Shown: positions 60,001 to 64,000 of the stretch, piece after piece
How positions within the stretch are numbered: position 1 is the stretch's first letter
Layout: each line of letters starts with the position of its first letter
Virus record (IMG/VR): IMGVR_UViG_2724679237_000005
Coordinates: 1-64,000 of that record
DNA length: 64,000 nucleotides
Source of the DNA: a virus
Taxonomy: Duplodnaviria > Heunggongvirae > Uroviricota > Caudoviricetes
Direction: 5' to 3' (one strand)
Made by a program: the position numbers

Positions 60001-63000
60001 ATTGGATATCCTCCCAAATCAATATCGGAGAATGTTTTAATAAGCCGTTTGATATGGGCTTCTGCCTGATCAATCGAGCCGATGAAGTCGTATGAGCGAT
60101 TGTATGGCCTGTATTCGCTTTTCGAGCTTTCTGTTAACTCGCTTTTAATCGTTTCGGATAGAGCATCTTCTGTCATGCCTCCGACTTCATCTTCTATGCT
60201 ATCCAGCTCCTCTAAAGCCTCTTCCAGACTCATTTTTGACGGAGTTGGAATATCTGAAGAGCCGTCTTCTGTCGTTTTTCTTTTTTCGTGGTCAGCGGTT
60301 AATGATTCTGACGCCGCGTTATCAGAAGCATCAGAATCTGATACCTCTTCATCATTTTCTGTATCATCGAATATTGTTTCTGATGATTCAGAATTATCTG
60401 AATCATCACTGTCGTTATTATCATGTTTGTGCTTACTGTGTGATTCTGGTTTGATAGATTTGTGATTATCTAACGCTGAGGGTGTCTCATAATCTTCGTT
60501 ATCTTCATTGTTTTCTCCAGAGGCATCCGTCTGGTCAGCGTCTGAAGGATCGGAAGTTTTTCCCGGAGCTGACTCCTTACCTTTGCTTTCACTTTCAGTG
60601 TCTTTGAGGATCTTAGCTATGGTCGCAGCCACCTTTACACAATCCTCGGTGCAAGACATGTTACGCACAGCCACATCGATACCATGTTCTTTTAATAATG
60701 AAATTGGTTTCTCAATGACAGGCCAGTATTCATCCATGAAATCTACGAACGGTGCTTGGCCATCCCAGGCTCTTACAACCGGACAGAGAAAGAAGTTTAG
60801 AAAAAGCGCGCGCTGATCTTTGCCACAATAAGCAATAGCCTCTGAAGCCTTTGGTTTAAAGACTTTTTCGATTATAAGGCGCTGAGTTGCCATCAGATTA
60901 CGTCTTGTTCCGTTAAAGACCTGCCCCATTTTTCGCTCGATGAACACGTCTTCTAAGGCATTCCATAGCGACCAGGAAGGAACGCGTCCTTTTTCTCTCA
61001 TTTTGTTGGACACACGAATATCGGTAAACAAAATGTGAGCAACCTCATGATCGAGAAATCCGCGCACAGCATTCATCAATGCCGGTGTTGCGTTATCCGG
61101 GATTGATGGGATGTTTACGAGAATTGGCTCTCCATCATCGTTATAGCGTACATAAGCGTCGTCCCCTCGTTCTGCAACAGGGATGTTTTTACCTGAAAGG
61201 AGAGCGACAACTCGTTTTACACTGTCACGGAAGTCCTGAACCTCTTTGATGGAACGTTTTTTAGACATGGCTAATCCTTTGTTATGAAAACAAATTATTT
61301 ACTAGTGTGTTTAATGTAGCACTGCGCGAACAGGGAACTAAGCCATTCGCGCAGGGAGAAGAGGGGTTAACAGATTCTGACGGCTAAAGACCCGGAGCCG
61401 GTATTGAGAAGCGTGAAGCGTTTGTTGTTAAGTTCGAATATAAAGCCAGTTGTGTCATTCACACCAACCTGAATCTGCTCATTCGGTAGATCGGTGAGGA
61501 TGTCAGCTACACACTCATCAGCTAATTTCTGTACGTGTCCGATCTCAAGAGCGATTAGGCTGGAAATAGTGGTTTTCATTCAATCAATCCATTCTAACTT
61601 ATACTATGGTAAGGAATACTACTAAAATTTGTATCAATACTGAATACATCTATATCAGATGCAAGTTAATTTTCTTACCTATTTTGGGCTGGTTTTTCTC
61701 CATGCATGGACCTTTGCTCGGTCTTACAAGTGCCTGCCGAAAAAAATGATAATAGCTTTACAACCCTAATCTTTGATGTAATATCGGTAAGCACTTACCA
61801 GAGAGAATTAAACGCGCAAAGGTTGTAATAATGTCTGACAACAAGATTGAATTTATAGAAAGTCGCTATGCTGCTTTTATCGCAGGGCTGATTGAATCCT
61901 CACCTATGAGTCAGGCCCAAATAGCCAGACTTATTGGTTATAAAAATGCCAACAACCTTTCTTTAATTAAAAGTGGCAAAATTCCTTTGCCTATCGATAA
62001 GGTTCGTCCGCTGGCGCTGGCGCTGGGTATTGAGCCAAGTCGTCTTATGATGATGGTGCTGGAAGAACGCCAACCTGAACTCGCAGCATTTTTATACAAA
62101 GAAGGCACCGCTCCTCTTAACGAGGACGAAAAACAGGTTCTTGCTGCATATAACGAGCGATTCGGTAAAGAGAAAGGCGCATCACAAAAGGTTGTTGAGG
62201 CCATAAAGTCTCTATGAAAAATTTACACGAATAAGCTCTGTTGATAGACGATCTCCCTTGAATTTGTGGTCAATTTCGTCTAAATCCGGTTGCTCTACGA
62301 TTGATGCGATGTACGTCGAGAAACTTTCTAAGGCGTCTCGCATCTCGTCCATATAATCGTGCCGGTCGTAGACCCGATCTATCCCCTCAAGACTGTGGTT
62401 CATGATTTTGCGTGATACCTCCTGGCTTATGCCTAATGCTGGGAAGTAACTACGCGCAGTACGGCGCAAATCTCGGGGTGTAAATGGCTCAAGCTCCATC
62501 AGTTCTGGTCGTTCCAGAATACGACGTAATGCCTGGGCTATTGCCACTTTAGACATAGGAAGGTCTTTCCCGATTTTTTTATTCGAAGGCACGAGCCACT
62601 GGCTATCTTTACCGTATTCGAACAACTCTTCAATGCATGTGCGCATTAATGTGCTTAAAGGCAGCGAATGCTCACGTGCTGACTTGTTTCTTTTGCCTTG
62701 ATTCCAAACCCCACGCTTAAGATTGAACTCACTTTTTTTAGCCCGCAGTACTTCGTCAGGTCGTCTTGCTGATACAAGACACAGCCTGGCCGCCCATTTT
62801 GTACCAGCGCACACATTGAAGTAGTCCCATATATTCCAGAACACCCATACCTCTGCGTCGGTCAGCTTCCGCTCGCGAGGTGTGGGCTTTGCGCCACCGG
62901 CAACTTTGTTTAGTGACATATCGTTTAACGGTGACACGTCTATCATTCCCTGGAAGGCGCACCAGCTAAGGAACTGCTTCATCAGAGAGAAAACGCGGCG

Positions 63001-64000
63001 GCCCATAACAATTTTGCCATCCAGTATTAGTGGGTTGACCAGTTGGTTCACCATGAACCTATTAATGTCACTTACTTTTACATCGGCAATGTGCGGCAAA
63101 ACATGTATCAAAATACAATGAACAGCGATCTCTGGCCGACGTCTTGTTATCAGCAGAGATAAGCGAGTGAATAACATGAATGCGTCCGAGAATCTCATGT
63201 CATTGCTGACCTGGGAGATCATAACGGCCTGCATTTGAGATGCTCTTTCGAGATACTCAATCGCCTCTTTTGAGGTGTTCTCCGCAGCGCGTGCTCTGTC
63301 AAAGCTATTTTTCATATGACAATCACCGAGTTACGCCGATGTACTGTATAAGTAAACAGTATATTAGGCATAGATTCTTATAGGATCAAGAGTAAAAGTA
63401 ACTCATTTTCAGTAATGATTCCATACATAGTAGGTATGGAATCATTTAGACGTTGTTTTTTGAATTTTAAGGGAAACAGGAGTGAGTTTGGTGGGAATAA
63501 AAACGGCTCCTGTGAGCCGTTTAAATCAGAGGGTGCTGACGTATGCAGCCAGTTCTGTGTATCCGCCAATCGGTTGGCCATCGATCAGTACCTGGGGGAT
63601 AGTCTCTACCGGTTTACCAACAATTTCACTAAGTTTTTCCTTGTCGATACCGGCAGTGGTGATGTCGATGTACTCATAATCACCGTAGCCATGTCCCTTT
63701 AGTTGCTTCGCCAGCTCGACCGCACGTTTGCAGTATGAGCAGTTATCTCGTCCGTAGATAGTGATCGTCATTGTTACCTCATAGAATTGATATGCAACTT
63801 TACTTACAAAGAAGATAGGTATGTGCATACTTATCATTGCAGTCTGCATTATAAAGCTATTAAAGCCTCGATCAATCTATTAATTAAGGCATTGTTTGGT
63901 TAACATTACCCTAATATTTTATAGTTAGTAGAGTGAAATACATACATGCCTTTTTTAATTTTCATTATTATACTACTGCTCACCGTGATTTTTTGGGATT

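Follow-up and report, generated by a model that had tools for sequence, protein, structure and literature searches.

A tyrosine recombinase and its 33-bp palindromic site as a candidate lox-like multimer-resolution system of SSU5-type phage-plasmids

Simple tyrosine recombinases act at sites made of two 13-bp arms and a short spacer, as in loxP and FRT, and the att cores of lambda have a 7-bp overlap. Plasmid multimers are converted to monomers at a single site per replicon by ResD at rfsF of the F plasmid, by Rsd at crs of the Salmonella virulence plasmid and by the host XerCD at cer and dif. The dif and cer sites are laid out as 11-bp arms around a centre of 6-8 bp, and the sfx sites of the R64 Rci shufflon possess a single conserved arm and a 7-bp spacer. 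In phage P1, Cre and loxP serve both dimer resolution and cyclisation (PMC7969092), and the published screens for Cre-type systems demanded Cre homology together with an 8-bp spacer (PMC4957104, PMC10250229). Phage-plasmids in general have been described as typically devoid of integrases (PMC12977533). Contrary to this usual picture, elements of the SSU5 type all carry a gene annotated "integrase", to which our computational analysis assigns a specific, testable role and target. A literature search on SSU5, integrase, resolution, lox or the arm sequence found no study of the present recombinase and site.

The window, that is, the whole stretch of 64,000 nucleotides analysed here, belongs to an SSU5/pHCM2-type phage-plasmid of E. 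coli. With pG749_2, an E. coli plasmid of 110 kb, it shares 99% identity, which bears out its initial description as a plasmid-like element, and it is 94-98% identical to the phage-plasmids Cyrano, PhiR41_1 and CMS-2020a. Some 5% of complete E. coli genomes (252/5,426) include an element of this type. The first-pass annotation had drawn attention to an XRE-family regulator, a tyrosine recombinase, an inverted repeat and a glutaredoxin near the window edge; all four exist (Table 1), but the coordinates of two of them must be corrected, as must the view that they form a module of four parts.

Table 1. Features of the recombinase locus, in window coordinates
Feature	Position	Strand	Basis or remark
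Exact 13-bp arm copy	57383-57395	+	antisense inside dnaE
XRE-type HTH regulator, 128 aa	61831-62217	+	PHROG 8 and public annotation
Tyrosine recombinase, 367 aa	62212-63315	-	PF00589, 39.9 bits vs cut-off 27.1
LexA (SOS) box TACTGTATAAGTAAACAGTA	63342-63361	none	between site and recombinase start codon
Putative sigma-70 promoter of recombinase gene	63361-63389	-	-35 TTGATC, 17-nt spacer, -10 TAATAT
Predicted recombination core site (lox-like), 33 bp	63414-63446	none	perfect 13-bp arms
Probable intrinsic terminator of grx	63501-63522	-	AAACGGCTC-acag-GAGCCGTTT then TTATT (minus-strand reading)
GrxA-family glutaredoxin, 81 aa	63526-63771	-	NF008401, 107.8 bits vs cut-off 84

The inverted repeat upstream of the recombinase gene is real, but what had been described as 10-bp arms at about 63417-63443 is the inner part of perfect 13-bp arms, AATGATTCCATAC (63414-63426) and GTATGGAATCATT (63434-63446), which enclose the asymmetric, AT-rich 7-bp spacer ATAGTAG (63427-63433). 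The repeat ends 98 bp from the recombinase ATG, and its anatomy is that of a simple-recombinase site, with inverted arms of about 13 bp and an asymmetric spacer of 6-8 bp. The arm-spacer-arm pattern had no match in 100 shuffles of the window, and perfect inverted repeats with arms of at least 11 bp occur at 6 places in the 64-kb window and at none in 10 shuffles. Neither the window nor the complete relative pG749_2 contains a second full site, so that the matching repeat to be looked for at the other end of the element is missing; single arms only are present, and no extra or arm-type repeats were found near the core. Lying between genes and able to form a perfect 13-bp stem with a 7-nt loop, the repeat could conceivably be an RNA or transcriptional element, namely a hairpin terminator or attenuator between grx and the recombinase gene. 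We find this scarcely credible: the arm sequence itself, and not just its pairing, has been kept in homologues as distant as 45% protein identity, with two symmetric changes only, the AT-rich stem has no T-run and drew no terminator call, no Rfam family matches, and a better terminator candidate for grx lies closer to that gene (Table 1). The latter consists of a perfect 9-bp inverted repeat; the terminator scan made no call there, and its position and sequence point to a probable intrinsic terminator.

As first noted, the recombinase gene converges with the XRE gene, and their 3' ends overlap by 6 bp. Public records annotate the product as a 'site-specific integrase'. In sequence and fold its closest relatives are the lambda/P4-type integrases, with which it shares the core-binding and catalytic domains (PF22022 and PF00589); PF22022 is weak in the window protein (22.7 bits vs a cut-off of 27) and is recorded for many relatives. 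No member of the family has the arm-binding domain PF13356, which is confined to the next relatives (P0114-P0120), whose identity does not exceed 34%. In the profile alignment, lambda Int is covered from about residue 42 onwards, and residues 1-40 of the recombinase are helical. The predicted catalytic residues are R185, K211, R281, R284, H307 and Y316. Among 48 sequences, R185, R284 and Y316 never vary, and K211 and H307 hardly ever do. R281 aligns with H308 of lambda Int, so that throughout the family Arg stands where the catalytic R-K-H-R-H/W-Y set has His-I of the HxxR motif, a point of caution. The AF2 model of the protein (pLDDT 87) finds its best structural matches in residues 75-356 of lambda Int (Foldseek, E 3e-7), whereas IntI ranks in the middle of the fold matches and Cre matches weakly (E about 0.02, TM 0.43). 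The weak fold matches include 9rgl, a recombinase-fold protein that its PDB title names as the repressor of phage phi3T. A single-sequence search of the PDB with phmmer (E<=1) gave no match, and the family profile matches lambda Int and Xer proteins, not Cre.

The same architecture of arm, 7 bp and arm lies upstream of the recombinase gene in 67 of the 67 loci scored, which comprise all full-length homologues examined, at 44-254 bp from the start of the recombinase match. These loci span 45-100% protein identity and more than 15 genera, and they include phage-plasmids as well as megaplasmids of Pantoea, Rahnella and Erwinia; a search started from the site led again to a flanking gene annotated 'site-specific integrase'. 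Two clades can be distinguished, with arms TGATTCCATAC in clade 1 and TGACTCCAGAC in clade 2, the two positions concerned showing the same change in either arm. L027 has arms of an intermediate or mixed type, as have L054, L058 and L062, and Chimaeribacter genomes hold one system of each clade type. Recombinase and site are linked and co-vary, and the pair is kept across unrelated plasmid backbones. The megaplasmid neighbours of the system are H-NS-like, Map and TonB-receptor genes, none of them in common with the phage-plasmids. It appears that a simple lox-like system evolved from an arm-dependent lambda/P4 integrase lineage through loss of the arm-binding domain, and that it has since reached the large plasmids found in Pantoea, Rahnella and Erwinia.

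The ends of the spacer are conserved in one intrinsic orientation, TTNNNAG, which is free relative to the gene (47 loci one way, 20 the other way), as expected if the relative orientation of two copies alone matters. We rejected site-specific inversion as the origin of the flipped spacers on the reasoning that recombination between two sites preserves the orientation of the spacer with respect to its own flank. A 'minute inversion' by a hairpin or template switch would be a more likely cause.

The module was found at 255 places in 252 of the 5,426 complete E. coli genomes, all of them on plasmids and none chromosomal. Each of the 252 E. coli plasmids has one site, as do nearly all of the 101 plasmids that come from other genera. 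The sole record with two sites, p_Cp2 of Erwinia persicina, has an inverted duplication of about 10 kb that spans the record ends; it was set aside as a natural two-site plasmid, since the second copy is most likely an assembly artefact and is uninformative. No dimers, cointegrates or two-site products were found.

This distribution bears directly on the possibility that the protein is a true integrase, the palindrome being the attP core at which the element inserts into the chromosome at a matching attB. The affinity of its sequence and fold to lambda/P4-type integrases, its public annotation and a spacer as long as the lambda-type overlap would all fit. We nevertheless hold this reading to be very improbable, and for E. 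coli it is already largely refuted: all 255 places are plasmid-borne, in an exhaustive search that covered E. coli chromosomes, and neither the 33-bp site nor the segment 63316-63525 matches a chromosome (E<=10, 5,426 E. coli genomes). The region 61000-64000 has no tRNA or Rfam match either, so that both the chromosomal attB and the tRNA identity suggested for 63320-63525 by the first-pass annotation fail to appear. The protein lacks the arm-binding domain, the core is without flanking arm-type repeats, and the site is whole in 67 of 67 loci, never divided into attL and attR halves. Of the two alternatives originally offered, an integrase with its attachment site in 63320-63525 is thus opposed by the evidence, and multimer resolution is favoured by the single palindromic site per replicon beside a recombinase without an arm-binding domain. 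A single plasmid-borne site co-inherited with its recombinase is indeed what characterises multimer resolution, and the annotated "integrase" is most likely not an integrase.

What travels together is the recombinase and the repeat only, not the module of four features initially proposed. The XRE-family regulator was correctly recognised (PHROG 8 'transcriptional regulator', E=6.6e-12; HTH/XRE regulator in public records); its Pfam HTH matches lie below the curated cut-offs (HTH_19, 18.9 bits vs 30.2), and its counterpart in phage Cyrano is the 'putative repressor' CYRAN_45. Homologues are confined to phage-plasmid backbones of the window's type (L004-L008, L013, L026, L047 and L050) and are absent from about 50 other loci that retain recombinase and site. 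Because of these loci, the regulator should not, as far as its distribution tells, be grouped with the recombinase, and it is best regarded as a backbone neighbour outside the recombination module. We also rejected it as the protein that binds the palindrome, most site-bearing loci having no XRE homologue. Nor should the glutaredoxin, judging by its genomic context, be grouped with the recombinase. It is real and of the GrxA type, although the end first given, 63849, is that of the longest possible ORF and the gene ends at 63771. As the annotation of the closely related pG749_2 includes nrdA and nrdB, we assign it to the nucleotide-metabolism genes of the element; it is a backbone gene unrelated to the recombinase. 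Some relatives (Cyrano, pJN2-26 and pEC16-2) have variable cargo between grx and the site.

The putative promoter of the recombinase gene was read from the sequence by eye, with its -35 at 63389-63384 and its -10 at 63366-63361; at 8/12 it falls under the threshold of the scan tool and was not called. Both hexamers and their spacing are kept in a Klebsiella locus (L004) and a Kluyvera locus (L005) despite a differing spacer sequence. The -10 overlaps a LexA box that agrees with the consensus at 17 of 20 positions and is the sole TACTG-N10-CAGTA without a mismatch in the window. Box and promoter are conserved across five genera, which corresponds to the pattern of the LexA regulon, a CTG-N10-CAG overlapping the promoter at conserved orthologous positions. 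The recombinase gene appears from these elements to be under SOS (LexA) control. In the Cyrano lysogen, the recombinase gene CYRAN_44 is missing from the genes listed as expressed, and both of its neighbours are listed (PMC9928086).

Exact copies of the arm also occur apart from the site. The one inside dnaE matches the site over 16 nt (57382-57397), with one extra base 5' and two 3'. Plasmid pG749_2 has three isolated exact copies, one of which corresponds to 57383-57395 of the window, and with up to one mismatch allowed, 5 copies are observed vs a shuffle mean of 0.27. The three exact copies lie within about 10 kb of the recombinase gene, and one covers the start codon of a small membrane-protein ORF; clade 2 has no isolated copies. 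Several kilobases away from the site, such copies are unexpected for a pure lox-type system and give a hint of a further role in DNA binding or regulation. They could even mean that the palindrome is a protein-binding operator only, bound by the XRE protein or by the recombinase acting as a repressor, with the isolated arms as further operators comparable to the dispersed C1 operators of P1. The palindrome precedes the -35 of the recombinase promoter by 25 bp, and the match to the repressor 9rgl points in the same direction. We rate this reading as rather improbable, however. About 50 site-bearing loci have no XRE gene, and the region upstream of the XRE gene bears a different palindrome, GGTAAGcaCTTACC. 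A protein that did no more than bind DNA would not have kept Tyr316, both catalytic Arg, the Lys and the His across the family. The 13-bp arms with their conserved asymmetric AT-rich 7-bp spacer suit a site of strand exchange better, and clade 2 has no isolated copies.

We consider it likely that the recombinase and the 33-bp palindrome constitute a self-contained Cre/loxP-like multimer-resolution system of the plasmid prophage, which possibly serves in genome cyclisation as well. From sequence we infer the arm binding, cleavage positions, resolution activity and SOS induction of the following scheme. Each 13-bp arm would be bound by one recombinase monomer, and two sites would synapse after homologous recombination has fused plasmid copies into a head-to-tail dimer. 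Tyr316 would then cut where the 7-bp spacer meets the arms, and strand exchange in two successive steps via a Holliday junction would restore the monomers, to be segregated by the partition system. The asymmetric spacer would set the alignment of the two sites, and spacer differences between lineages would prevent recombination between co-resident relatives. Just as Cre cyclises P1, the same reaction could close an injected phage genome with terminal redundancy into a circle. Since the LexA box overlaps the promoter, expression in SSU5-type elements would be expected to be low in the lysogen and to rise with DNA damage, which would be the time both of dimer formation and of prophage induction. 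Two points should be set beside this scheme. No resolution-selectivity (accessory) sequences were identified, and the system as described would consequently catalyse fusion as readily as resolution. Moreover, E. coli plasmids can use the host XerCD, so a dedicated resolvase is not strictly needed.

The DNA directly past the distal arm is hypervariable: in 85 of the 252 E. coli plasmids, similarity to the window ends at the edge of the distal arm or no more than about 20 bp from it, and at least five unrelated flanks start at the first base after the arm, next to recombinase genes that are 96-99% identical. The cargo found there comprises a YafO toxin, fimbrial operons, a DUF6645 protein, a gadW-like regulator and a highly expressed moron, and pG749_2 and pEC16-2 differ in cargo while having the identical recombinase WP_048959201.1. 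Megaplasmid pairs without the LexA box keep the distal flank in 7/10, in a biased sample whose loci were partly chosen for differing breakpoints. Together with the LexA control to which integron integrases are reportedly also subject, these observations speak for the site as an SOS-triggered exchange point for accessory genes, besides or in place of resolution and loosely similar to attI of integrons. We think this unlikely, as no second or degenerate site bounds the cargo and no attC-like repeats were found; degenerate sites sought in the loci of relatives, including six cargo regions, reached 17/26 at best, the shuffle background. Similarity in Cyrano and pJN2-26 runs about 18 bp past the arm, so that not all junctions are exact, and sharp boundaries could also be left by repeated illegitimate events under selection on the site, or by breaks at a palindrome. 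It is quite unlikely, in our estimation, that the site forms an SOS-induced platform on which SSU5-type phage-plasmids swap or capture toxins, fimbriae and morons at the distal arm, with the single arms as secondary or regulatory sites; if true, this platform would be a phage-borne equivalent of the integron that works without cassettes. The LexA box and the cargo hot spot point to a connection of DNA damage with maintenance of the plasmid prophage and with the movement of virulence and defence genes.

Compared with the described systems, the locus shares its predicted task with ResD/rfsF, Rsd/crs and XerCD. The 33-bp site differs from the dif/cer layout, and no accessory sequences were seen. 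With Rci/sfx of R64 it has the 7-bp spacer in common, and its isolated copies resemble sfx sites in consisting of the conserved arm, ATC and unrelated sequence. In contrast to the shufflon, no inversion polymorphism was seen between the isolated copies, gene order is constant in the relatives examined, and an inversion at the copy within dnaE would break up that gene. IntI/attI is similar in that its tyrosine recombinase gene is under LexA control, as the one here appears to be, with the site just upstream and variable cargo beyond; it differs in that the cargo here comprises whole operons in either orientation, with no attC-bounded cassettes and no second site. The lambda/P4 integrases are closest in sequence and fold, with alignable catalytic residues and a lambda overlap equal to the 7-bp spacer. 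In contrast to them, the present system has no PF13356 and no arm-type sites, its core is perfectly palindromic, and there is no chromosomal integration and no attB in E. coli genomes.

In organisation, the locus resembles Cre/loxP of P1: both belong to a plasmid prophage and pair a single tyrosine recombinase without an arm-binding domain with an adjacent site of perfect 13-bp inverted arms and a short, asymmetric, AT-rich spacer, and the same roles are predicted here, dimer resolution and possibly cyclisation. The differences are a spacer of 7 bp (8 bp for Cre), Arg in place of His-I, a LexA box in the promoter and a protein that is not of the Cre type. Homology to Cre and an 8-bp spacer, the marks of the Cre family proper (Cre, Dre, Vika, Panto and their relatives), do not apply to the present recombinase; Panto/pox of Pantoea, which is Cre-type with an 8-bp spacer, was rejected as a member of the same family. 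Having demanded both marks, the published Cre-type screens would miss the present system. Its 7-bp spacer, the two arm specificities found in nature and the many natural variants of the spacer make it a candidate recombination tool apart from the Cre family.

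The DNA from 61000 to 64000 is 99% identical to pG749_2, a 110-kb, non-mobilizable E. coli plasmid, and 94 to 98% identical to the phage-plasmids Cyrano (pLF82), PhiR41_1, and CMS-2020a. Genes of the SSU5/pHCM2 group surround the locus (dnaE and those for CobS-like and CobT-like proteins), and the complete relative pG749_2 also encodes nrdAB, RepB, ParB-like proteins, and tail and capsid genes. Based on this gene content and on the identity to phage-plasmids, the "plasmid-like element" recognized by the first-pass annotation is therefore a plasmid prophage. The dnaE gene of the window (53336-57648) is split: its N-terminal portion (787 aa) is encoded at 55285-57648 and its C-terminal portion (389 aa) at 53336-54505, with a 244-aa ORF carrying an HNH endonuclease motif between them (54502-55236); dnaE of pG749_2 is unbroken (1172 aa), and pG749_2 has a DUF4365 gene that is absent from the window.

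Features of the recombinase locus (window coordinates unless stated; L001 is the pG749_2 locus)
Feature	Position	Strand	Basis or remark
HTH (XRE-type) regulator	61831-62217	+	ORF call, profile matches
Tyrosine recombinase	62212-63315	-	ORF call, Pfam catalytic domain
Left arm, AATGATTCCATAC	63414-63426		Perfect 13-bp inverted repeat
Spacer, ATAGTAG	63427-63433		7 bp, between the two arms
Right arm, GTATGGAATCATT	63434-63446		Perfect 13-bp inverted repeat
Glutaredoxin (GrxA)	63526-63771		Profile match
Isolated arm copies	57383-57395; L001 17153-17165, 18153-18165		pG749_2 97047, 105816, 106816

The regulator, the tyrosine recombinase, and the glutaredoxin predicted at this edge of the window were all confirmed as ORFs, the last one ending at 63771 and not at 63849. 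The inverted repeat upstream of the recombinase gene is also real, with arms of 13 bp at 63414-63446 instead of the 10-bp arms placed at about 63417-63443, and it ends 98 bp from the start codon. We call this 33-bp palindrome the site, and the arm away from the recombinase gene the distal arm. The site pattern had no match in 100 shuffles of the window, and perfect inverted repeats with arms of at least 11 bp, present at six places in the window, were absent from ten shuffles, so the repeat is not due to chance. The longest perfect inverted repeat of the window is intergenic, at 31118-31150 (15-bp arms, AAAGCCTACTTTAAA, and a 3-nt loop).

Comparison of related loci indicates that the palindrome belongs to the recombinase and not to the neighboring genes. 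The recombinase has 153 detectable relatives, almost all from Enterobacterales and many on contigs of ~100 to 120 kb; a scan in which each species was represented by one genome yielded 65 loci, and 67 loci, the window and close relatives among them, were scored for the site. In every locus with a full-length homolog, the site lies upstream of the gene, with inverted arms separated by exactly 7 bp in 67/67 scored loci, 44 to 254 bp before the start of the recombinase gene match. The arms are TGATTCCATAC where the proteins are 57 to 100% identical to the query (clade 1: E. coli, Klebsiella, Kluyvera, Yersinia, Buttiauxella, and one Chimaeribacter copy) and TGACTCCAGAC where they are 45 to 53% identical (clade 2: Pantoea, Rahnella, Erwinia, Ewingella, Xenorhabdus, Photorhabdus, Morganella, Hafnia, and others). 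Two changes, T to C and T to G, distinguish these sequences and are the same in both arms; a few loci have intermediate or mixed arms (L027; L054, L058, L062), and Chimaeribacter genomes contain both types, one system of each. The clade 2 site, used as a query against PLSDB, was found in 101 plasmids, essentially once in each, including large Pantoea plasmids (e.g., pPag3) and plasmids of Rahnella and Erwinia, and the adjoining gene was again annotated as a "site-specific integrase." An inverted duplication of ~10 kb (~894-10259 and 128296-137660) in the Erwinia persicina record p_Cp2 (loci L078 and L082) covers the recombinase and the site, and its annotated proteins share identical accessions; we rejected p_Cp2 as a natural two-site plasmid since the duplication spans the record ends and resembles an assembly artifact. 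An 11-bp copy of the arm is found inside the recombinase gene of Klebsiella, Kluyvera, and Yersinia (3485-3495 in the Klebsiella locus L004; L005, L006, and L007 at 6607-6617). It falls in the codons of a conserved V-W-N-Q, has one mismatch in E. coli (TGATTCCAAAC), and is probably a coincidence of coding.

The XRE gene and grx, which the first-pass annotation had joined to the recombinase and the repeat in a four-part module, turn out to be neighbors rather than partners. The XRE homolog adjoins the recombinase only on CobS/CobT phage-plasmid backbones and is missing from ~50 loci that keep the site; grx, of cofactor type, belongs with the nucleotide-metabolism genes and in many relatives is parted from the site by inserted cargo. 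In the region upstream of XRE (61757-61799), a promoter-like TTTACA-16-TAATAT is directly followed by the palindrome GGTAAGcaCTTACC, a candidate operator of the XRE regulator and unrelated to the recombinase arms; more copies of GGTAAG/CTTACC occur at ~61608 and ~61674.

Chromosomal integration by the recombinase is not supported. An integrase with its attachment site in 63320-63525 had been proposed, together with searches for identity to a tRNA or attB and for a matching repeat at the other end of the element. Of 5,426 complete E. coli genomes, 252 carry the module; its 255 occurrences are all on plasmids, and neither the 33-bp site alone nor 63316-63525 has a chromosomal match at E<=10. The surroundings of the site (61000-64000) gave no tRNA or Rfam match, neither the window nor the complete pG749_2 contains a second full site, and a split, attL/attR-like site was never found among the loci examined.

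Besides the catalytic domain, the window protein matches, below threshold, the central domain typical of P4-type integrases, which is listed for many relatives. The closest proteins outside the family (<=34% identity) are P4-type integrases with the arm-binding domain PF13356, which is present in no member of the recombinase family. The top structural matches of an AlphaFold model built from 48 sequences (mean pLDDT of 87) were to lambda integrase residues 75 to 356 on core DNA (E of ~3e-7, TM up to 0.75), followed by Tn1549 Int, XerA/XerH, and IntI, with Cre as a weak match (E of ~0.02). The alignment of the family profile with lambda Int begins at lambda residue 42 and pairs R185/K211/R284/H307/Y316 with lambda R212/K235/R311/H333/Y342; all family members have Arg281 in place of the first HxxR His (H308 of lambda). 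This kinship in fold and profile and the missing arm-binding domain thus identify the recombinase, at the level of sequence and modeling, as a lambda/P4-lineage enzyme from which the domain required for directional, arm-dependent integration has been lost. Its partner is a symmetric site that consists of a core only, with a spacer as long as the lambda overlap.

We consider it likely that the recombinase and the site form a self-contained Cre/loxP-like system, in which the single site of each replicon would be recognized by the adjoining enzyme to resolve dimers of the plasmid prophage. The single site, the core-only recombinase, and the plasmid-only distribution favor the multimer resolution that the first-pass annotation had offered as its other reading. 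The same system might also circularize incoming genomes, by analogy with P1, where Cre/loxP functions in dimer resolution and cyclization (PMC7969092). The ends of the spacer show one conserved intrinsic polarity, TTNNNAG (the window has ATAGTAG), and the spacer can face either way relative to the gene (47 versus 20 loci, with both orientations in both clades), as is expected of a site that need only match a second copy of itself. Opposite orientations are seen even among near-identical E. coli elements, such as PhiR41_1 and the window, and among elements with flanks that are 98 to 99% identical. Spacers vary by lineage (ATAGTAG, ATAGTAA, CTAAAGA, CTGTAAG, TTGGTAG, TTAATAG, and others), which would block cross-recombination between coresident relatives. 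In PhiR41_1, the palindrome is lengthened to CAGT...ACTG (spacer at 5424-5430 of its locus, L003, versus 63427-63433 in the window). Flipped spacers and a lengthened palindrome look like the result of hairpin-mediated minute inversion and symmetrization; site-specific inversion was rejected as the source of the flipped spacers, since it would keep the orientation of the spacer relative to its own flank.

We infer that the recombinase is SOS induced. In the stretch that separates the site from the start codon, TACTGTATAAGTAAACAGTA (63342-63361) matches 17 of the 20 positions of the LexA box consensus and is the sole zero-mismatch TACTG-N10-CAGTA within the 64-kb window. The box overlaps the -10 hexamer of a putative promoter on the recombinase strand, TTGATC-17-TAATAT (63384-63389 and 63361-63366, minus), which was read by eye from the sequence. 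The elements of E. coli, Klebsiella, and Kluyvera keep the box, both hexamers, and their spacing, and a more degenerate box occupies the same position in Yersinia and Buttiauxella (five genera in all); no box was found there in Chimaeribacter, Xenorhabdus, Photorhabdus, or any megaplasmid locus compared. In transcriptomes of the LF82 lysogen, the recombinase gene of Cyrano, CYRAN_44, was not among the expressed genes, its neighbors CYRAN_45 and CYRAN_43 were expressed 10-fold and 723-fold over background, and ciprofloxacin induces Cyrano 39-fold (PMC9928086).

The distribution of flanking sequences points to the DNA just past the distal arm as a hot spot for accessory genes. The window arrangement, with grx directly after the site, is kept in 167 of the 252 E. 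coli plasmids; in the other 85, similarity to the window ends at or within ~20 bp of the distal arm. In relatives with 96 to 99% identical recombinase genes, at least five unrelated sequences take over from the first base past the arm, and pG749_2 and pEC16-2 share the same recombinase protein accession and carry unlike cargo. These sequences lead into cargo that differs by element (hot spot from 63447 onward in the window; loci L002, L003, and L072 to L077): chaperone-usher fimbriae, a YafO toxin module, a gadW-like regulator, a DUF6645 protein, or the moron CYRAN_43. Such a sharp boundary would be explained by recombinase-mediated exchange between elements and subsequent homologous resolution, by selection on the site plus repeated illegitimate events, or by breakage at the palindrome. 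Scanning of the cargo-bearing loci revealed no second site bounding any cargo, and in Cyrano and pJN2-26 similarity runs ~18 bp beyond the arm, so not every junction is exact. In megaplasmid pairs, the distal flank is mostly kept (7/10 pairs), the phage-plasmid sample in this flank comparison being biased by the choice of loci.

Five exact copies of the 13-bp arm are present in pG749_2 (shuffle mean of 0.27 at <=1 mismatch); two make up the site, and the three isolated ones, at most ~10 kb away, are all directed at it and directly followed by ATC. One lies antisense within dnaE, in the window too, another is located upstream of the tRNA cluster, and the third overlaps the start codon of an ORF for a 50-aa membrane protein (MIPYISLAFMAG...). 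Isolated copies occur at comparable places in Kluyvera, Yersinia, and Buttiauxella and in none of the clade 2 loci. The isolated copies may have a regulatory role as binding sites, act as secondary sites, or be remnants of past recombination.

Our literature search found no paper on this recombinase/site system; published Cre-type screens demanded Cre homology and an 8-bp spacer (PMC4957104, PMC10250229). Under this reading, the "integrase" carried by a very common group of phage-plasmids would gain a function. The analysis also suggests that the gene is under SOS control and that the site adjoins a hot spot for cargo, and the pair is a candidate for an orthogonal recombination tool. The enzyme is kin to the lambda and P4 integrases but lacks what defines them, an arm-binding domain and integration into the chromosome. 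It is outside the Cre family, with no sequence homology to Cre and a spacer of 7 bp instead of 8, yet the predicted working of the pair is that of Cre/loxP.
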